NCBI RefSeq assembly: GCF_030028105.1
Contig: NC_092399.1
Span: forward strand, 24,572,881-24,636,880
Length of the DNA: 64,000 nt
Direction: 5' to 3'
From: Mobula birostris
Lineage: Eukaryota
In this document: positions 3,455-62,720 of the stretch, one piece after another
How positions within the stretch are numbered: position 1 is the first letter of the stretch
Layout of the letters: each line of letters begins with the position of its first letter
The notes under the pieces: model-generated
Databases searched by the model: none
Told to the model about the DNA's origin: nothing
The model's input: the letters and a program-made list of their open reading frames with translations, nothing else
Translations under genes and position numbers: made by a program

Positions 3455-3718
3455 CAACATGCACAAAGTGCTGAAGGAGCTTGGCAGGTTCGCCTGGTCT
3501 GCTGAGTTCCTCCAGCATTTTGTGCGTGTTGCTCGGATTTCCAGCATCTGCAGATTTTAAAAACGCAAACACGAGGAATTCTGCAGATGCTGGAAATTCA
3601 AGCAACACACATCAAAGTTGCTGGTGAACGCAGCAGGCCAGGCAGCATCAATAGGAAGAGGTACAGTCGACGTTTCGGGCTGAGACCCTTCGTCATCTGC
3701 AGATTTTCTCTTGTTTGA
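3455..3718. mobile_element. Penelope pseudo-LTR fragments; a younger solo pLTR (3559-3693) is nested in an older one
   Basis: Same ctgcagatgctggaa...gaaacgtcgac sequence as the termini of the Penelope copies at 29216 and 34411; 14-bp direct repeat catctgcagatttt at 3545-3558 and 3694-3707. Confidence 0.75.
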
Positions 3719-9375: not shown

Positions 9376-10629
9376 CAACCTGATGGTAAGGTATGAAAAG
9401 TGAAAATTTAGTATTTCTAAAAAAAACAATTAGTTAATCTAAGGGTGGTACTGGGGAATGAGCTGAATATGGGCAGGTTAATATAGAGGAGACAGACTTA
9501 GTGTCCCAAATCACATACTTAATGAAATGGCACTTATAGGGAGATATATCAATGTAATGTACAATTCAGCAATGGCATAGAGAAATATGAATTAGTCCTT
9601 TAGGATAAGATAGGCTTAAGTCAGGCTTATATTAAACTGACACTCCTTGCTTCAAACACGTTTTCCAAAGCAGCCATAAGAAATATTATAGAAGGGGAAC
9701 TAGGTGAAGCCATATAAATATGTAATTATAATCAGAATTGCAAGCTGCCAATCTAAAAGATTTAGTGATTGTTGCCAATCTAAAAGATTTAGCGATTGTT
9801 TCTATAAATGGGATATATTACATAAGTTACAATGAAGTCCTTTGGCTGGATTTTGAATTGGGACTGGTCTAATGGTGGAGACAAATATTCAAGAATAAAT
9901 CACCATTCCTTTTACGGAAAAGATTAGCATTTTATTAACCTTCACGGCATCTGTATTAAACAAAAGGATCCATTGACGTGCATTCAATAAATGATCTGGC
10001 ATCACCCCTTGCTCAGCTAAGTGTGGAAATCTGGCACTTGCATGTTAGATTTGTGGTGCCCCTTTTCAATCTTCAGTACACCGGTAGAAATGTAAACCAC
10101 TGCAGATGCTAAAGAGGGAGCATGAAAAAAATGGGAACACCTTGCTGGTCGGGCAGCATCAGTGGAGAGACAACAGAGCCAGATGTGTCAGGTTGCTGTC
10201 TCGATCACCTCCACCTCTCTCAGCTAAATCTAGAGGCAGTCTTGGCTTTAATATGATTAGAAATGATAGTGTTCAAAGAAAATCAGATAATACTGTCCTT
10301 GGTATTTCCGCATGGTTCTGGAGGTGTAAGTGTTCATTCCTGATGACTTTGAAACAGTCTCGGAGAACTGGAAAAATCCACCAACACTGTAAACACATAA
10401 GTAATGACTGAAATTCATTTAGAAAACACTTCAGGGATCGGGTACCAGGAGACTAACCTGTGAGTTTGAGCTCACGGTACTCCACCAGGCAGGGAATTCT
10501 AATTTCATGCCTGCACCAATACACCAGTTATTTTTCTCGTATTTCGGAATGAAAGAGAGAGTAGGTATTCAGCTCAATGAGCGACAGCCACCCAGCAGAA
10601 AAACCCATTCCCTTACTGATTACGACAAG

Positions 10630-10768
10630 AGACAATCTGCAGATGCTGGAATTGCAAGCAACGCACACAAATTCCTGGAGGAACTCAGCAGGCCAGGCAG
10701 CATCTATAGAAAAGAGTACAGTTGACATTTCGGGCCGAGAACCTTCATCAGGACTGGAGAAAAAAAGA
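10630..10768 (-). mobile_element. Solo Penelope pseudo-LTR with degenerate hammerhead motif
   Basis: Reverse complement contains cagtcctgatgaaggttctcggcccgaaatgtcaactg. Confidence 0.75.
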
Positions 10769-22410: not shown

Positions 22411-22939
22411 ATATGGAAATATGCAATGACTGAGTAAACATTCATAAATGCAAATGAATGATCTCTTCAATTGCGTGAAAATAACCTCAGAACTGTACGT
22501 GTTATAACGTAATTGCAAGAATTGGCTAACTTCTTTGGAGGCAATTACACTTTCAATCTCCGAAACATGGAGTAAAATTCATTAAATTTACTCAAGAGCA
22601 GTGTTGGACTGGGTGACTTTTACCGATATATAAAGTAGAAAGTTCAGATAAACATAGCCATAGGATCCACAATGAGGTTAAAAAGTATCTGGTTTTGTAA
22701 AAACATTATTAAATCATTTTAGAGTCAGCCACTAGATGTATATTGTGCAATATTGTAATAGAAATGTAGTTTTTTTGTTTTATGGAGTTAGGGAGTCTTT
22801 AAAGCAAATAAATTGTGACAAACATTTGAAGTGATTGTGCTTACTTTTGAGCTCCAAATGTATGGCTTCAGTTTCTCAAAATTATGTAGAAGCTGGATAG
22901 ATGTTTTTTTTTGCATGCTCCAGTGTTGAAGTTAGTCAC

Positions 22940-23137
22940 TGTTATGTAACTTCTATTTAAATGTACTGTGGGTTAACAGTAAAGAATCATATTCTGGAGG
23001 AATTAGAGAACTTTTATTTACAGTAATAAACACACACGTCTTAACCCAGCCACGTGCTGGAACATTGTAGCAATCCCGTGCATGCTCAGTACTCTGTCCA
23101 ATCATGTACTGGCACATCATTGCATGTCATATCACCA
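22940..23137 (-). repeat. 3' LTR (198 bp)
   Basis: Direct repeat of 24879-25074; preceded on the minus strand by purine tract aggaaaggaaga. Confidence 0.95.
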
Positions 23138-23139
23138 CA

Positions 23140-23151
23140 TCTTCCTTTCCT
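23140..23151 (-). promoter_or_regulatory. Polypurine tract (PPT)
   Basis: AGGAAAGGAAGA on the minus strand next to the 3' LTR; a second copy lies at 23343-23354. Confidence 0.85.
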
Positions 23152-23199
23152 TAAAAAGAAAAAATAATTAACAATGTTAATCAAAGCAAATACATAATT

Positions 23200-23338
23200 C
23201 CACATGTTTCTATCAGTCTCTCTGTGGGTTTACCAACACGAGTAGACCTTCTAAGTGGTACACACAGATCTTGTGTTTCCTTGTTATTATTTACATGTTT
23301 TGTCTCATCTGCATCAGTTAACTGACCCTCTGAAGAAT
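23200..23338 (-). pseudogene. Residual C-terminal tail of Gypsy Pol (post-integrase)
   Basis: VPLRRSTRVGKPTERLIET fits the RRSxRxxKPPxRL-type tail common at Gypsy integrase ends. Confidence 0.65.
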
Positions 23339-23378
23339 CACATCTTCCTTTCCTCAAAAAGAAAAGCAAATAAAAACG

Positions 23379-23999
23379 TTAACCAATAAACAAATCTATA
23401 TCAGCTAACTGAAACTTTGAAGTTGGCTCTTCACTATCTGAGCCATGACTCTTTTTGTGCTTCTTCTTTTCTGCGTTAAGCTTTTCTTTATGTATCTCAA
23501 CTAAACTTTTCTCACATGCCTCCCGGTTAGAATCTGGAATTTCGGGTAAGCAGTTCACGCTATCCTGCTCAGCAATCTGCTTCCCTGCTTCTGTTTGGAC
23601 TGTATCTTTCCTAATTCCTTCCATTTCCATTTGTAATGAAATACAAATCTTCTTTTCTTCATCTAATTCATTCAGTAACAGTGTAATCTCTTTTTTATGC
23701 TGAGACTTCATCATTTCAATACAACTTCTCAATTCCTTCACTTGTGCTTCTTCCTTATACTGTGCCCACTGTGAGTGTTCTTGCTCTAGCCGGTGGTTAG
23801 ACTGAATCTCATATTCTCTCAGTGACTCTTTCATTATTTCTTGCATTGAAGCAACCTCCTCCTGCCATCGCTTTTTCATATCAGCAATTGCCTCCTGTTT
23901 GGTCATCTCAGACACTGCAGCTACAACTTTTATATTCTCCATGTCAGCATTTTCATAAAGCGCATCTGCATAAAATTTCTCACGGTTATCTTCAATCAC
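23379..23999 (-). CDS. Open 206-codon chimeric frame: Gag tail + RABEP1 + SH3KBP1 + SLU7 fragments
   Basis: Uninterrupted ORF in frame with the upstream gag; internal ATG at 23942 (MENIK); segments recognised by recalled similarity to human proteins. Confidence 0.75.
23427..23594 (-). pseudogene. SLU7: Captured fragment of pre-mRNA splicing factor SLU7 (C-terminal Lys-rich region)
   Basis: TEAGKQIA...[28 protein letters not shown] vs recalled human TGEAGKEIV...QTLMELHQEKLKEEKKKK...KHRKSSSDSDDEE. Confidence 0.7.
23607..23747 (-). pseudogene. SH3KBP1: Captured fragment of SH3KBP1/CIN85 (C-terminal coiled coil)
   Basis: [47 protein letters not shown] vs recalled human [47 protein letters not shown]. 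Confidence 0.85.
23751..23948 (-). pseudogene. RABEP1: Captured fragment of rabaptin-5 (N-terminal coiled coil)
   Basis: [47 protein letters not shown]...[14 protein letters not shown] vs recalled human AEMENIKAIATVSENTKQEAIDEVKRQWREEVASLQAVMKETVRDYE...RLEQERTQWAQYRE. Confidence 0.88.
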
Positions 24000-24785
24000 T
24001 GCATTTACTTATTTCATTTCATTTTCCTTCTTTCTACTTCTACAGCAGCGCGAAAAATGATTAATCTTACCTCAGTTGTAGCAGATTTTGCCATATGCGA
24101 AACACTGATTTAGAGGATGTTCCCGCGCACAGCGATCACATGACTTTTTTCTTCCAAATGCTGTCTTACTCCCTGTCAGTTTTGTCGATGTATTATTATA
24201 TTTCTTGATATATTCGTGCTGTTTTACAGCATTTACATTGCAGTTTTCGACAAAAAGCTCTTCAGCCTGCGACATTACAGTCTCAGAAGCTTTGCAGAGC
24301 GCGAAAGCTTTTTCAAAATTTAAATCTTGCTCTCTCAACAGCCTTTTTCTTAGTGTATTATCTTGAATGCCACAAATTAGTCTATCTTTAATAAGAGAGT
24401 CTGTGAGCAATGCAAACTCGCACGTTCTTCTATGCTTTCTTAACTCAGTCACATACTGATCAATTGTTTCAGTAGCTCTCTGCGCACATGTGAAGAACTT
24501 AAATCGCTCATACGTTAAATTACGCTTAGGTATACAAAATACTTCAAATCTATCCATTATCAACTTTAAATTGAAATTATCTCCATCTTCAAAGACAAAA
24601 TTATTATATACCTCTACTGCGTCATTCCTGATTACATGGAACAAAAGCACAGCTTTATTTTTTTCCGATTTTCCTTCATAATCGATCGCTGATAAGTACA
24701 GTTCAAACTGTTGCTTGAATATCCTCCAATTCACAGTTACATTGCCAGTCAGCTGCAATTTTGCTGGGGGTTGTAAACCTTCCAT
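24000..24785 (-). pseudogene. Gypsy/Mag-type gag with two late premature stops
   Basis: MEGLQPPAKL...NWRIFKQQFELYL...ERFKF...ETIDQYVTELR...IKDRLICGI...RLLRE; zinc knuckles CDRCAREH and CYN*GKINHFSRCC; stops at 24072-24074 and 24009-24011. Confidence 0.9.
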
Positions 24786-24863: not shown

Positions 24864-24878
24864 CCACTTCTGACACCA
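24864..24878 (-). promoter_or_regulatory. Primer binding site complementary to the tRNA-Leu 3' end
   Basis: TGGTGTCAGAAGTGG directly after the 5' LTR; complementary to CCACTTCTGACACCA of vertebrate tRNA-Leu(CAA/CAG). Confidence 0.85.
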
Positions 24879-25074
24879 TGTTATGTTACTTCTATTTAAA
24901 CGCACTGTGGGTTAACAGTACAGAACCATGTTCTGGAAGAATTAGAGAAGTTTTATTTACAGTAATAAACATACGTCTTAACCCAGTCACATGCTGGAAC
25001 GTTCTAGCAATCCTGCGCATGCTCAGTGCTCTGTCAAATCATGTACTGGCACATCATTGCACGTGATATCACCA
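24879..25074 (-). repeat. 5' LTR (196 bp)
   Basis: Direct repeat of 22940-23137, TG..CA ends, TSD adjacent. Confidence 0.95.
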
Positions 25075-25184
25075 GTCACTTTATCTAATTTCACATTCCG
25101 TGCTGGTGAATCGTAAACTTACAATGCTGTGGCTGCTGCTTTTGGTAATCATTAATTCTGAAACTTTATGCTTTATGCTGTCAT

Positions 25185-25665: not shown

Positions 25666-26766
25666 TGTCACTGTCCGGTCCGTTGACTTCTCATTTCAGT
25701 TAATTTCTTTTTCCCCATGTTCTACCGGGCTCCTTGATTAGGGCACCTGATCCTCATCCAAACCGGCAGCATAAAAACTCCAGCTTACATCTACTCAGTG
25801 CTGGACCGTCACACTGCAGCCTGTGTGGCAATGCATGTTCCGGGGCCACCGAGAATGGACTCCTCAGCCAGTGAGGCAATGCAGGACACAGACACGGAGG
25901 TAACAATAACAGAAGTGTATCTTATTAATAGTTGCCAGGAAGGCTGGAGAGCGAGGATTAGATGCTTACATGGACGTAAACGTTGGACAACAAACCAGAG
26001 GAACCTGGACTTGGACTTGGCCACACAGCCTGGACTCAGACACGGAACCTGGACTTGAACTCGGATGCGGAACCTGGACTTGGGCCGCTGAGAATGGTAG
26101 ATTTTAAGTGGCTTCCCTTCTCCAGGAATTCTGTCTCTTCATGTTTAGCTAAGTGATTGCTGGCCATTTGCCGCTTCATGTGCTACCCCATGTCAAGATA
26201 TGAATTGTCTGCCGTTGTTGGGTTTTGTCATCTAGTGTCCAGCTGAGGATTGATGTCCATTTGCCCCTCCTCCGAGCCAAGACAAAAATTGTCTGTCGTT
26301 GTTGGGTTTTGTCGTCCCATGTCAAAGTCCGAGTCCAGGCTCCGAGTCCAAGTCAAGTCCGAGTCCAGGCTCCGAGTCCATGTCAAGTCCAAGTCCAGGC
26401 TCCGAGTCCAAGTCAAGTCCAAGTCCAGGCTCCGAGTCCATGTCAAGTTCGAGTCCAGGCTTCATGTCCGAGTCCAAATCCAAGTCCAGGTTCCACGTCC
26501 GAGTCCAAGCCCAAGTCCAGGTTCCGCGTTCGAGTTCAAGTCCAGGTTCCGTGTCTGAGTCCAGGCTCCGTGGCCGAGTCCAGGCTCTGTGGCCAAGTCC
26601 AAGTCCAGGTTCCTCTGGGTTGTTGTCCAATGTTTACGTCCATGTAAGCATCTAATCCTCGCTCTCCGGCCTTCCTGGCAACTATTAATAAAATATACTT
26701 CTGTTAATGTTACCTCCGTGTCTGTGTCCTGCACTTGGGCCCGCTCCCAAATGCCGCATTGTAACA
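25666..26766 (+). mobile_element. Solo Gypsy-like LTR with internal 30-bp tandem array and inverted self-duplication
   Basis: TG..CA ends; TSD ggagt at 25661-25665 and 26767-26771; aataaa near 26686; ctgcacttggg 3' motif. Confidence 0.8.
26320..26612 (+). repeat. Tandem repeat with a ~30-bp unit built from gagtcc/aagtcc hexamers
   Basis: gtccaggctccgagtccaagtcaagtcc units repeated. Confidence 0.9.
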
Positions 26767-32115: not shown

Positions 32116-33414
32116 GTGAACTTTCTTACATTTTATTAATAATTAATGATTTAAAGCAAAACATTTCAACCTTTTCCAACACCTTCAAGTATCTCTGATC
32201 ATCTGGGACATTTGGAGCCATGAGATACCATTGGCAATATTAGGAGTCGAAGTGCTATTGGGACTAGCTGTGTGACTTATTTGAGGAACATCTCAGATCA
32301 ATTGTTTGGGAAAGTCTCTGATCATCTCCTGTTCGGGACTTTCTAGCCTTCAAGATTCAGTGACATTTAGATTGTTTTCATTGTACTTCAAGTTTTCTTT
32401 GTCTCCACTCATTTACATTTCCTCTTCATGTTCTCTCATCACTACCGTCGGCAACATTTGATCCATCTTGTCCCAATTCTTCCCTTCTGTTCTCCACTAC
32501 CTTCTCTGCAATTTAAAACTCAGTTCTTTTTAGAATTGGAGAAATGTCGTCGACCTGAAAACTTAACTCTTTGTCTTACCACGTAGGTACTTCCTGACCT
32601 TCTGTGTATTTGTGAATTTGCAGTATTACTTTTTTAAATAGGGGTGGCACAGTAGTACAGTGGCTAGTGCAGTTGTCTTGGCCAATGATCACCAAGGTAG
32701 AAAAAATCTGCAGATGCTGGAAATCTAAGCCACACACACAATGCTGGAGGAACTCAGCAGGCCAGACAGCATCCACGGAAAAGTTTAAACAAATGTCATT
32801 TTGGGCCGAGACCCTTCATCAGGCCTGGAAAAAAAAAATGAGAAGTTAGAGCAAGGAAGTTGGAGGAAGTGAATAAGAAGTAGGAGGCGGTAGGTGATAG
32901 GTGAAACTGGGAGAGGGGAGGGGTGAAGTAAGGAGATGGGAAGTTGATTGTTGAAAGAGATAAAGGGCTGGAGAAGGGGGAATCTGATAGGGGAGGGTAG
33001 AAAGGGAAGATGGAGGAGCACCAGAGAGAAGTGATGGGAAGATAAGGAGATAACGTGAGAGAGGGAAACGGAAATGGGGGAATGGTGAGGGGGGGATTGC
33101 AATTACTGGAAGTTCGAGAAATTGATTTTCATTGCATCGGATTGGAGGCTACCCAGATGGAATATAAGGTGTTGCTCCTCCAACCTGAGTGTAGCCTCTT
33201 CACAGCAGTAGAGGAGGCCATAGAGTGACATGTTGGAATGGGAATGGGAAGTAGAATTGAAATGGGTGGCCACTGGGAGATCACGAGTTTTCTGGCGGAT
33301 GAAGCGCAGGTGCTCAGCGAAGCGGTCTCCCAATCTACGTTGGAGCTCACTGATGTACAGGAGACCGCACCGCGAGCATAGCTTAAGGTAAATGACCCCA
33401 ACAGACTCACAGGT

Positions 33415-34411
33415 TATTCTCCGTAACTTCCGCCACCTCCAACGGGATCCCACCACTAAGCACATCTTTCCCTCCCCCCTCTCTCTGCTTTCCGCAGGGA
33501 TAGCTCCCTACACGACTCCCTTGTCCATTCGTCCCCCCCATCCTTCCCCACTGATCTCCCTCCTGGCACTTATCTGTGTAAGCGGAACAAGTGCTACACA
33601 TGCCCTTACACTTCCTCCCTTACCACCATTCAGGGCCCCAAACAGTCCTTCCAGGTGAGGCAACACTTCACCTGTGAGTCAGCTAGGGTGCTATACTGCG
33701 TCCGGTGCTCCCGATGTGGCCTTTTATATATTGGCGAGATCCGACGCAGACTGGGAGACCGCTTTGCTGAACACCTACGCTCCGTCCGCCAGAGAAAGCA
33801 GGATCTCCCAATGGCCACACATTTTAATTCCACATCCCATTCCCGTTCTGACATGTCTATCCATGGCCTCCTCTACTGTAAAGATGAAGCCACACTCAGG
33901 TTGCAGGAACAACACCTTATATTCTGTCTGGGTAGTCTCCAACCTGATGGCATGAACATCGACTTCTCTAACTTCCGCTAATGCCCCACCTTCCCCTCGT
34001 ACCCCATGTGTTACTTATTTTTATACACACATTCTTTCTCTCACTCTCCTTTTTCTCCCTCTGTCCCTCTGAATATACCCCTTGCCCACCCTCTGGGTCC
34101 CCCTCCCACCTCCTTGTCTTTCTTCCCGGACCTCCTGTCCCATGATCCTCTCGTATCCCTTTTGCCTACCACCTGTCCAGCTCTTGGCTCTATCCCTCCC
34201 CCTCCTGTCTTCTCCTATCATTTCGGATCTCCCCCTCCCCCTCCAACTTTCAAATCCCTTACTCACTCTTCCTTCAGTTAGTCCTGACGAAGGGTCTCGG
34301 CCTGAAACGTCGACTGCACCTCTTCCTAGAGATGCTGCCCGGCCTGCTGCGTTCACCAGCAACTTTGATGTGTGTTGCTTGAATTTCCAGCATCTGCAGA
34401 ATTCCTGTTGT
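33415..34411 (+). mobile_element. Penelope-like element 3' portion (GIY-YIG and pLTR)
   Basis: ORF 33655-33981 has a GIY-YIG domain with CxxC/H residues; TSD tcacaggt at 33407-33414 and 34412-34419. Confidence 0.9.
34280..34315 (+). ncRNA. Minimal type I hammerhead ribozyme motif in Penelope pLTR
   Basis: agtc-CTGACGA-AGG gtctcgg CCT-GAAAC-GTC-gact: conserved core, stem II, stem I agtc/gact, GUC cleavage triplet. Confidence 0.8.
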
Positions 34412-35089
34412 TCACAGGTGAAGTGTTGCCTCACCTGGAAGGACAGTTTGGGGCCCTGAAGGGTAGTGAAGGGGGAGATGTAGGAGCAGGTGTAGCATTT
34501 GTTCCGTTTGCAAGTATGAGCGCTAGGAGGGAGATCAGTAGGGAGGGATGAATGGACAAGAGAGTTGCATAAGGAGCGATCCCTGTGGAAAGCAGAAAGT
34601 GGAGGCGGGGTGGGGGAGGAGGGAAAGATGTGCTAATGGTGGGATCCTGCTGAAGTTGGCGGAAGTTACAGAGAACTAGGTGCTGGATGCAGAGGCTAGT
34701 GAAGTGGAAGGTTAGGACAAGAGCAACCCTATCCCTGGTGGGGTGGTGGGAGGATGGGATGAGGCCAGATGTGTGCAAAATGGAAGCGATGTGGGTGACA
34801 GCAGTGTTGATGGTGGTAGAATTTTGTACATTCTCCTTGTGAATGTACAAAATTCCACCTGGTGCTCTGGTTTCCTCCCACATTCCAAAAAAGTATGATT
34901 AAAGCTCAGCATGTTATGCTGCTGGTGGAAGCACGGTGACGCTTGTGGGCTCCCCCAGCACAATCCTCGGCCTGTGTCGGTCATTGACGCAAAATGATGC
35001 ATTTCACTGTGTGATTTGATGCCTTGATGTACGTATGACAAACAAAGCAAATCTTTTAATATAGATAATGGGAACTTATTTTGGAGACC

Positions 35090-37377: not shown

Positions 37378-38000
37378 TGCTCCATCCGCCAGAAAAGCAG
37401 GACTTCCTGATGGCTACTCATTTTAATTCTACTTCCTATTCCCATTCCGACATGTCAGTCCATGGCCTCCTCTACGGCTGCAATAAGGACATACTAGGGT
37501 TAGAGTAGCAACACTTTATATTCCATCTGGATAGCCACCAATCTGATGGTATGAACATGAATTTCTCAGACTTCTGGTAATTGCCCCCCACCTCAACATT
37601 CCCCATTCCCATTTCCCTCTCTCACCTTATCTGCTTGCCTGCCCATCACCTCCCTTTGGTGCTCCTCTCCCCTTTTCTTTCTTCCATGGCCTTCTGTCCT
37701 CTCCTATCAGATTCCCCCTTCTCCAGCCCTGTATCTCTTCCACCAATCAACTCCCCAGCTCTTCACTTCACCCCTCCCACTCCCAGTTTCACCTATCACC
37801 TATCACCTTCTACTTCTTTCTCCCATCCCCCTAACTTCTTACTCTGACTTACCATATTTCTTTCCAGTTCTGATGAAGGATCTCAGCTCGAACCATCGAT
37901 GGTTTACTTTTTTCCATAGATGCCACGTGACCTGCTGACTTCCTCCAGTATTTTGTGCGCGTTGTGTTGACTTCCGGCATCTGCAGATTTCCTCTTGTTT
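37378..38000 (+). mobile_element. Penelope-like element 3' end
   Basis: Homologous to 33780-34405; degenerate ctgatgaagg...cgaacc hammerhead. Confidence 0.85.
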
Positions 38001-46428: not shown

Positions 46429-46648
46429 AGACACAAAATGCTGAAGGAAATCATCTATGGAAAAAAGTAAACAGTTGACGGTTTAGACCGAGGCCCTTCA
46501 TCAGGACTGGTGAACGGTCCTGATGAAAGATCTTGACCTGAAACATCGACTGTTTACTTTTTTTCCATAGATGCTGTCTGGCCTGCTGAGGTCCTCCAGC
46601 ATTTTGTGTGTGTTGCTTTGGCTTTCCAGTATCTGCAAATTTTCTCAC
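46429..46648. mobile_element. 220-bp Penelope pLTR-only foldback insert with back-to-back hammerhead motifs
   Basis: 16-bp TSD atcaaggtgaagttac at 46413-46428 and 46649-46664; inverted arms tctatggaaaaaagtaaacagt / actgtttacttttttccataga. Confidence 0.85.
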
Positions 46649-59448: not shown

Positions 59449-61106
59449 TACACACATACACACACTAAAAAACTGGAGGAACTCAACACGTCAGGAACTC
59501 AGCATCCATTGAAATGAATAAACAGTCAATGTATCAGGCCGAGACCCGTCATCAACATCCATAACTTTATACTAAGATTGTTAAAGGTGAATCCTAATGC
59601 TAAAGGAGTTATATTATATCGACATACTCCAACACTGCACCACATTACATATAATACATTCCAAAAGTGGACAATTCTCTGTACAACAGTGAAGGGTAGT
59701 TTCATTTTAACACAAGGGGTTAAAAGATAAATGCATTTTTAATGAAAGATTAAAGAAATCCAATTGAAAGAAACACAGTTTAATGCCTTGGGCTGTTGAT
59801 CTTAAAATTGGAAAACTAATTATTCAAAGAAACAAAATAAAGAAATAATTGTAGTTAAAGGTCAAGGCCAGAAATGTGTGCAAAGAAGTTGCAATCGTTG
59901 AAATCCTGGATTATAAAAAAAGTCACTTGATTGAAAACACATCTCAAATGACAAAAAGGTCAGGAAAAATGCCCAAGAACAGAGAGTGAAGTCCAAAGAG
60001 AATGGAATGCCACCAGGAACATTTGAGTTAATATAGTGCGAGCTCAGGTCACTGTTGCTCACTGTGTCTCATTAAATTCATTGGAGAAATCTGTGTACTG
60101 TCATTGCTGAAAAAACATGGCAAGGTCAGGGAGAACTGAGGGCATTGTAAAATTTGAGTTTTATTTGGGTGTTAATTCCCCTGTCAAAAACAGCCAGTGC
60201 GTCATTGTCATCAACAGAAAAATGGGCAGGAATGATTTCAGATAATAACTTGACTGAAAGAGATGTTGTGAGTGGAAGTGGTCAATCGTATTCAGTCTCA
60301 GCCAATTTTCAATTAAAATCATTGCCATGAGGCTTCTGTCTCTCTTTATTCCATGGTTGAATGAAGCTTATAATGATTGTATATGAAGACTCATTATCCC
60401 AATCTATATATCAAAATTATGATTATTAATTAGAAAATTTAAACCATTGTAGGAAGTTTTTGTAGCAAGTCTCACATGTTGACTTGGTCTTTTGTCTCTG
60501 GTAGAAAAGTAATAAGAGCACAACTGTCATGAGCTCTGCGGGCCTCTGCGGTGAACTGTAGAGTGTTGGGCCTCTTGGTGCCTCGGGCACCTGCCTTTAC
60601 TTATTGTTGTCTTAACTAGAGATGTTAAGACTTTGTGCTTTCTGTTTAATCTTTCAATATCTAGCTGTGGTGTATCTTGACAGGATGTTTTCTGTGGTGT
60701 GCCTTTAAAAATTGGCGAGGGTCTTCAGGGACAAGCTAAATTTCCTTAACCTCCTAAGGAACTAAAGGCACTGGTGTGTTTTCTTGGCGATAATGTCCAT
60801 GTGGATGGAGCAGTACAAATTTTTTTATGGTGTTATTACTATTTATTATTTATGGTGCAACTGTAACGAAAACCAATTTACCCCGGGATCAATAAAGTAT
60901 GACTATGACTATGACTATGTTAATTGTGACTGACACGGGTTTTCTGCATTCTATGATTATTTAACGCAAATCCCCCCTCCTCCTTTAGCGCTTATTGCGG
61001 GGTCCTTGTGTGGAGAATGATTTGTCTTGTGGTGTCGCTCAGTCATGCCAGTGATGCTCCGTTGATATTCCTGTGTATAATCTCTTGTTGTTGTCTCTAC
61101 ACAGAA

Positions 61107-61260
61107 GCCTGCCATTCCTCCGCACCCGAGTTCAGTCATTGCCAGCACTCACCCAGATAGAGTCTGCCATTCCTCCGCACCCGGGTTCAGTCATCGCCAG
61201 CACGCACCGTGACCAAGTCTGTCGTTCCTCCGCACCTGCGTTCAGTCATTGCCAGTGTCA
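61107..61260 (+). repeat. Three imperfect tandem copies of a ~55-bp unit
   Basis: ttcctccgcacc..gttcagtcat.gccag recurs at about 61114, 61169 and 61225. Confidence 0.8.
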
Positions 61261-61679
61261 CCATGACAACCACATTTTGATTGCTCTTCAAATTACATAA
61301 CGCTCAGTCCGGTGTTTGAAGCAGGGAGTTGCAAGTTTGGTGCAGTTAGTTCCTGCAGTGGATATTATGATTACTTCTATAAAATTACTCATTGATCACC
61401 TTAAGAAATATCAGGAATAAATAAACTATGCAATTACAAATTGCGTTCCTCTTGTGGAATATCATAAATACAACAGAACCAGAATCAGGTTTAATATTCC
61501 TGGCATGTGTTGTGAAATTTGTTAACTTTGTGGCAGCAATACAGTGCAATACATGATAACAGAGAGAAAAAACTGTGAATTACAGTAAATATATATATGT
61601 ATACATAATAGTTAAATAAACAGTGCAAAACTTAGGAAATAAAAAGTAGTGAGGTGGTGTCATGGGTTCAATGTACATC

Positions 61680-62720
61680 TCCAAAAATTTGTACTGCTCC
61701 ATCCACATGGACATTATGGCCAAGAAAGCGCCTTTAGTTCCTTAGGAGGTTAAGGAAATCTGGCTTGTCCCTGAAGACCCTCGCCAATTTTTAAAGGCAC
61801 ACCATGGAAACCATCCTGTCAAGATACACCACAGCTAGATATTGAAACTGCTCAGCCGAGACAAGGTGGTAATTACCAGCTGCAGAGATTACTGTCTTCA
61901 TGGCTGTGAACACACTTTTGTAAACATTATTCCCGAATGTTATTTGCTTACTTTTTTTTGCACTATTTGTTTTATTTTTGCACACTGTAGTTTTTTACTG
62001 GGTCTATTGTGTTTCTTAGTTTTATGGCTGCCTGTAAGGAGACAAATCTCAAGGTCGTATACATAATTTGTTAATTAATGTACTTTAAACAAGAAATTGC
62101 GAAGTCTATCATGAAAACCAGTCTCCCTTCCTACGTTCCCTCCAAGCTGTGCGGTCGCACACGTTTTTCAACCAGTGCACAAAGGAAATTAATGTGCGCA
62201 CAAAAGGTTAGTTACCTAAAATAATGTAGTAATTAATAATTATACTTACTGAAAATAATCTTTTAGCTAAATGTTTCTGTTAACTAGTCGGTTTTTCAAA
62301 CACCACAATACAGTTTTATGTCAAATATTTTGTAAACTTACATAAAATGTGCCATGTGAGCATTCAGTGCGCACATACTTTTGTCACAGGAAAAAATTTG
62401 CACAACATAAGATTTTTGCGCACAGTGACTACTAAAAATTGGAGGGAACATTGCTCCCTTCCATTGAATTTGTCTACACTTCCTGCTGCCTTGAGAAAGC
62501 ATTCAAGATGATCAATGACCTCTCCCAACTGGTCATTCTATCATCTTCCCACCTTCCACTGGGGACGAGATACCAAAGTTTGATAACACGTACTACCAGA
62601 CTCCAGGACAACTTCTACTCCGCTGTTAGCAGACTCTTAAACAGATCTCTAGCATGATAAAGATGATCTCTCAGCCTACCTTGTCATAGCTCTTGCACTT
62701 TATTTGTCTATCTGCTTGGC
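61680..62720 (+). mobile_element. Rex1-type LINE 3' portion, fragmented by insertions
   Basis: LPSIEFVYTSCCLEKA...LPLGTRYQSLITRTTRLQDNFY. Confidence 0.75.
62131..62453. mobile_element. hAT MITE
   Basis: TIRs ctacgttccctccaa / ttggagggaacattg; 8-bp TSD ctcccttc at 62123-62130 and 62454-62461. Confidence 0.9.

Follow-up and report, generated by a model that had tools for sequence, protein, structure and literature searches.

Can host gene fragments that a transposon has captured be of use to the transposon itself? Most known cases of host-gene capture by LTR elements are rare and low in copy number, and they are interpreted either as accidents or as material from which host genes can arise. 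We analyzed a 64,000 nucleotide stretch of the Mobula birostris genome (the window; contig NC_092399.1, positions 24,572,881 to 24,636,880), in which a minus-strand frame joins a retrotransposon gag to pieces of three host genes. The element that carries this frame is a decayed copy of a non-autonomous, pol-less Gypsy LTR family of a ray. It is a fossil family with hundreds of copies that keeps its intermediates, so the permitted rearrangements can be counted and this long-standing question becomes testable by census. The counts point to selection inside the element on the Gag-host fusion.

Anatomy of the element and its host-derived cargo

The window element is 2135 bp long, with two LTRs of about 197 bp that are 89% identical (Table 1). 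Structural features of a Ty3/Gypsy LTR element are present: two TG...CA LTRs, a 5-bp target-site duplication, a primer-binding site, which we take to be of the tRNA-Leu type, and a polypurine tract. In this subfamily, gag has no protease after it. Against Pfam, the gag gave weak Retrotrans_gag/PNMA matches below the cut-off, and a PDB sequence search with the gag returned no solved relative.

Table 1. Features of the window element, numbered from the first base of the window.
Feature	Positions	Strand	Remarks
5-bp target-site duplication, upstream copy	25075..25079	(-)	identical 5 bases flank both LTR ends
5' LTR, TG...CA, 196 bp	24879..25074	(-)	89% identity to 3' LTR
Primer-binding site	24864..24878	(-)	directly after 5' LTR; from sequence
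gag, ATG to end of NC linker	23953..24785	(-)	85-87% identical to gag in the full-length relatives that retain pol
Two zinc-knuckle-like motifs, codons 216-228 and 235-248	24042..24140	(-)	second broken by stop in window copy; from sequence
Stop, codon 238	24072..24074	(-)	post-insertion decay; present in 2/42 other copies
Stop, codon 259	24009..24011	(-)	private to window copy; 0/42 others
Spliced RABEP1 fragment, native frame	23747..23952	(-)	two exons joined across ~9 kb intron; 90-92% identical to the exons of the host gene
Spliced CIN85/SH3KBP1 C-terminal coiled coil, three exons, native frame	23606..23749	(-)	PDB 5ABS and 2N64 matches; 94-98% identity to first two exons
Short integrase-tail stub, element's own	23592..23605	(-)	
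Spliced SLU7 fragment, charged, Lys-rich, three exons, native frame	23428..23591	(-)	
Integrase-tail piece and family-wide terminal stop	23379..23431	(-)	stop in 39/40 copies
Rest of integrase tail, downstream of stop	23190..23335 (lower end approximate)	(-)	
Polypurine tract	23140..23152	(-)	from sequence
3' LTR, 198 bp	22940..23137	(-)	
5-bp target-site duplication, downstream copy	22935..22939	(-)	

The frame reads as the sequence-only reading had described it: from 24785 down to 23379, there are 468 codons and a stop with no frameshift, interrupted by internal stops at codons 238 and 259. That reading had also placed the first stop at a zinc-knuckle cysteine, and codon 238 is indeed the second Cys position of a CX2CX4HX4C motif (C235, H243, C248). 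We compared the frame with 44 other copies of the window architecture, 42 of which were aligned for the internal stops and 40 for the terminal stop. The terminal stop is common to nearly all of them, while the two internal stops are rare or private (Table 1), and their attribution to decay after insertion is borne out. The description of the frame as an ancestral 468-codon fusion needs adjusting. The fusion frame is family-wide, but 468 codons is the length of the window copy itself: 27 of 29 sister copies are longer by 6 and 9 nt at two sites and most are longer by 6-12 nt at a third, always in frame, and in-frame deletions have left the window copy short of most of its sisters by 15-27 nt.

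Copies of the window architecture have 2.3 internal stops on average. Codon-by-codon inspection of 29 copies showed all of them to be broken, each by its own set of lesions, and one natural open stretch of 448 codons spans all of the joints. Stop density is alike in gag (5.4 per 1000 codons) and in the host-derived cargo (3.8-6.7 per 1000 codons), a point against the reading, given below, of a selected Gag-coil polyprotein. Two sets of shared lesions were considered as inherited and rejected. At the codons of the shared stops, 94 and 141, CG occupies the first two positions in 20-22 of 39 copies, which indicates parallel CpG decay. The frameshifts found repeatedly around codon 211 and within an A-run of the CIN85 segment lie in runs of variable length and occur across subfamilies.

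The three donors are RABEP1 (residues ~278-345 of the fusion), the C-terminal coil of CIN85/SH3KBP1 (346-393), and SLU7 (399-457). All three pieces match exons of single-copy host genes in the same genome with the introns gone. Two exons are spliced together in the RABEP1 piece and three in each of the other two, so the pieces are derived from mRNA. At the protein level, the RABEP1 and CIN85 exons of the host are almost or completely identical to devil-ray entries, which marks the host as a ray. Three capture junctions, each keeping the native frame of its donor, had been proposed. The native frames stand for all donors, but there are more than three joints, integrase-tail pieces flank SLU7, and the joint between gag and RABEP1 is a secondary deletion of the protease. 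On the order of rearrangements proposed below, this joint is not a capture joint.

The cargo consists solely of coiled-coil and charged segments, in agreement with the earlier description of the donors. The RABEP1 piece is itself coil-like, and the hydrophobic heptads continue in register across its joint with CIN85. The SH3 domains of the parent are absent from the CIN85 piece, whose proline-rich part has been deleted repeatedly. The human CIN85 coil is described as trimerising in the relevant passages of PMC10786037.

We noted several other features of the window. At 23190-23400, the 3' end of window-type copies is rearranged into an integrase-tail piece, a polypurine-tract-like stretch with the stop, and the integrase tail again, and this repeated tail is mostly in one frame across the terminal stop. 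A tandem array of 19-31-nt units (26316-26613) lies within a 201-nt inverted repeat with 90% complementarity (25880-26733), and three 55-nt tandem copies (61106-61270) lie within a 121-nt inverted repeat with 95% complementarity (60652-61847). Short dispersed repeats in both orientations, presumably SINE-like, are found at 3499-3695, 10625-10718, 32699-32828, 34281-34412, 37867-37998, and 46447-46641.

Nested subfamilies and the order of captures

Genome-wide, the cargo region has 598 candidate matches (40 scored) and the RABEP1 piece has 269. The SLU7 piece has 88 matches, one of which is the host gene, so there are at least 87 SLU7-bearing loci. We also examined eight loci of autonomous relatives that have the same LTRs and gag, are about 4.5 kb long, and encode a single gag-PR-RT-RH-IN frame; all eight are decayed, and no env-sized frame was seen in them.

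We observed the following architectures among the derivatives, where the counts mirror the queries used and not genome frequencies: gag-PR(-RT stub)-CIN85-IN tail in 46 loci, gag-PR-RT stub-RABEP1-IN without CIN85 in 5 loci (deliberately sought), gag-PR-RABEP1-CIN85-RABEP1-IN in 8 loci, gag-RABEP1-CIN85 in 3 loci, gag-PR-RABEP1-CIN85-SLU7 in 4 loci, and the window type in 45 loci. The capture family with RABEP1 and without CIN85 (loci L230-L234, L208, L239, and L266) has trimming deletions of its own.

These subfamilies nest, and we infer the order of events from the nesting rather than from dates. CIN85 and RABEP1 would have been captured separately and then brought together by recombination, after which SLU7 would have been captured, apparently in exchange for a basic part of the integrase tail. 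Deletion of the protease would have come last. The cargo is near-identical across subfamilies, but up to 43 non-synonymous and 35 synonymous net changes separate their gags, and therefore the cassettes moved between gag lineages.

Target-site duplications of 5 bp were found in 24 of the 70 loci with both LTRs. Median LTR divergence is 0.081 for the window type (n=29), 0.094 for CIN85-only copies (n=27), 0.099 for the autonomous relatives (n=4), and 0.063 (n=4) and 0.069 (n=3) for further subfamilies. We tried to order the subfamilies by these values and dropped the attempt, as a spread of 6-10% gives no order. Contigs from four sequencing runs, which we guess to be RNA and to which we give no weight as evidence of expression, cover the family and the host mRNAs.

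Retention of the frame and of the coil

A jumping alignment of 173 loci to the natural donors yielded 112 unique cargo loci. Among these 112, there are 15 classes of junction that lie inside the frame and occur in at least five copies, and all 15 are in frame in most or all copies (for example, 57/57, 51/51, 45/45, 42/42, and 37/39). A sixteenth class is in frame in four of five copies. When eleven of the classes were recounted with an anchor-based method, the majority of copies was in frame in 11/11. Chance microhomologies among the same donors would be in frame in a share of 0.36-0.45. At 0.45, 16 of 17 in frame, counting one -1 exception, has P = 3e-5, and 16 of 18, counting also a second -1 nearby, has P = 1e-4; both values assume independent junction events, which is plausible where the breakpoints are distinct but unproven. 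As controls, private small indels are in frame in 22/97, and a deletion that several copies have in common beyond the stop is out of frame in 6/7.

The exception lies in the final heptad of the coil, where 14 of 40 CIN85-only copies, versus none of 50 RABEP1-bearing copies, have a -1 shift. Two further copies have a common -1 near the same site. The shift looks inherited, so the frame of the tail would be dispensable there. Copies with the variant (L036, L054, L061, L122, and ten more) do not cluster on a tree of CIN85-only copies, which is star-like and cannot place the variant. Their new frame starts like the beginning of the coil and ends in a basic tail, and the variant spans several 5' junction types. 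Two single-copy trimming joints are also out of frame. Three further out-of-frame calls, at the joint between CIN85 and SLU7, were rejected as an alignment artefact; two of them were checked against the window copy and show no indel.

Could such a pattern arise with no selection at all? Purine-rich charged codons might favour template switching as well as in-frame microhomologies, with founder effects in addition. The cargo is 65-70% purine, compared with 57-58% for gag and pol, and all ten joints that we inspected lie at short purine-rich microhomologies (for one joint, on the right side of the donor only). In addition, yeast mini-Ty1 and mini-Ty3 elements move without coding capacity, according to the part of PMC4974528 that deals with them. 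Translation is therefore no general requirement, and the frame excess needs explaining. However, the measured bias raises the in-frame share only to the values given above, at which the P values stay between 3e-5 and 1e-4, and the deletion after the stop is out of frame. We regard an origin without selection as improbable, and as largely refuted already.

The next question is whether the cargo itself is kept, or only an open frame. In CIN85-bearing lineages, one of 14 distinct deletions enters the coil, whereas uniform placement would put 5.2-7.8 there (P 0.012 to 3e-5, for deletions listed by hand with the parent architecture assumed, six of them single copies). Several of these deletions stop just short of the start of the CIN85 coil. 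We then counted copies that had lost pol without gaining cargo. When loci were picked by the integrase tail, 22 had cargo, 2 were cargo-free pol deletions, and 41 had pol or were interrupted (n=65, comprising the top 30 matches and 35 lower ones, passing over those already sampled or known to carry cargo). When the top 30 loci were picked by gag, 22 had cargo, 6 had pol, 1 was cargo-free, and 1 was cut short. Of the three single cargo-free pol deletions (L207, L262, and L287), one is in frame and one is out of frame.

It may be that an unbroken frame alone mattered, with RNAs that carry early stops being degraded or poorly packaged, and that two founders passed on the host pieces as inert filler. 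Several observations are consistent with this. The cargo has no detectable amino-acid constraint, deletions inside the cargo and in the integrase tail are likewise in frame, seven copies share a deletion of the last third of the coil, and the -1 variant shifts the stop by just a few dozen codons. What such an account leaves unexplained is why cargo-free deletions, which need one jump and not two, did not spread (2 versus 22 and 1 versus 22 in the two samples), and why deletions halt at the start of the coil. On this evidence we consider it rather unlikely that the frame alone was under selection. Against a need for the coil stand the seven copies that lost its last third and the RABEP1-only lineages, which did spread without the CIN85 coil, although the RABEP1 piece is coil-like too.

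Per segment, the stems from parent gene to family hold 0.2-6 non-synonymous and 0-4.8 synonymous changes, and the net cargo change between subfamilies is ~0-1.5 substitutions, too few in both cases for dN/dS on the cargo. The parent-to-family synonymous changes can be the drift of the host gene itself, and the parent-to-family dN/dS of 0.14 for RABEP1 can likewise be the constraint of the host gene. At the tips, dN/dS values of 0.73-1.09 were obtained for the cargo, and their intervals reach or include 1 (kappa 3, all codons). Net dN/dS between lineages is 0.41-0.47 for gag and 0.10-0.19 for protease, and this constraint may come from autonomous lineages through recombination. The suggestion of selection on a Gag fusion protein is therefore supported in part: the frame is retained far above chance and family-wide, while there are too few changes to speak to amino-acid constraint on the cargo.

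While the family was still spreading, selection likely maintained both the frame and the host coiled-coil segment. We think it reasonably likely that a Gag-coil polyprotein was translated and selected during replication, probably by helping its own RNA assemble with helper Gag-Pol particles. Under this mechanism, spliced host fragments would have replaced pol in frame with gag, by template switching inside helper particles; reverse transcriptase and integrase would have been borrowed from the autonomous family, and the fusion would have been translated as one polyprotein. The coil is predicted to act as an oligomerisation module on Gag, aiding assembly or co-assembly with helper Gag-Pol around its own RNA. 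More tentatively, this Gypsy lineage may have captured host coils twice independently and then swapped, stacked, and trimmed them as an assembly module that let it out-compete cargo-free defectives for helper particles, for the benefit of the transposon and not of the host.

A role for the host is a different matter. RABEP1 and CIN85, two of the three donors, are endocytic adaptors, which could suggest that the fusion recruited endocytic machinery or served the host as a domesticated or gag-onc-like gene, and some copies are annotated as genes in stingrays. Yet every copy examined codon by codon is broken (29/29), the tip dN/dS of the cargo is that given above, the SH3 domains were not captured, the proline-rich part was lost again and again, and the third donor, SLU7, is a splicing factor. 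The endocytic role that had been speculated on finds no support in these features of the cargo, and we give very little credence to a host function of either kind.

Comparison with known systems

Transducing retroviruses have helper-dependent genomes with host sequence fused in frame to gag, and the likeness to gag-onc fusions that had been proposed holds for this architecture. It does not extend to the parent, which is a Gypsy element of about 4.5 kb with no env-sized frame seen, and the ray cargo is structural, not a signalling domain as in gag-onc, with no sign of infection or transformation. The ray element is not a transducing retrovirus. The TR-GAG elements of plants are short non-autonomous LTR elements that keep gag, with or without protease, and lack reverse transcriptase and integrase. 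The ray family resembles them in what was kept and lost, and differs in its vertebrate host and in having gag extended by host coils.

In the LTR-mediated retrocopies of animals, spliced host mRNA lies in the internal ORF and a template-switch model has been proposed (Tan et al. 2016, PMC5131818). The ray family shares with them, as far as the relevant sections of that paper describe, an internal ORF partly replaced by pieces of host mRNA that lack introns, microsimilarity at the joints, chimeras of several parents, and secondary retroposition with common joints. The retrocopies described there are young and occupy one or few insertion sites, and their frame is judged against the parent gene. 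The ray family, in contrast, has hundreds of copies, nested subfamilies, and a frame kept with gag through 16 inherited joints.

The closest precedent of the ray fusion is maize Bs1 (Elrouby and Bureau 2001, 2010), whose hybrid ORF derives from three unlinked host genes, as summarized in PMC5131818 and PMC7264820. Both are LTR elements with three host donors in one hybrid ORF and copies with common switch points. In those two summaries, Bs1 has 1-5 copies, has one donor out of frame, and is described as a functional host gene. The ray family is widely amplified, has all donors in frame, and its examined copies decay neutrally; instead of a low copy number and a maintained functional copy, we find the many SLU7-bearing loci and uniformly broken copies reported above. 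The extra ORFs of bdelloid LTR elements are separate frames, mostly untraced to host genes in the portion of PMC5408684 concerned with them. We found no description of this ray family in the literature that we searched, which excluded most subscription journals and repeat databases.

The family's joints recur in annotated proteins from two genera of stingray, and therefore the captures likely predate the split of these genera from this ray. The family yields false 'RABEP1-like' gene models in ray annotations: stingray models named 'RABEP1-like' or 'uncharacterized' (P0044, P0045, and P0076) are decayed element copies that include the protease and show these joints. In an electric-ray RABEP1 isoform, a precomputed Pfam match to reverse transcriptase is perhaps a case of annotation running into a retroelement.
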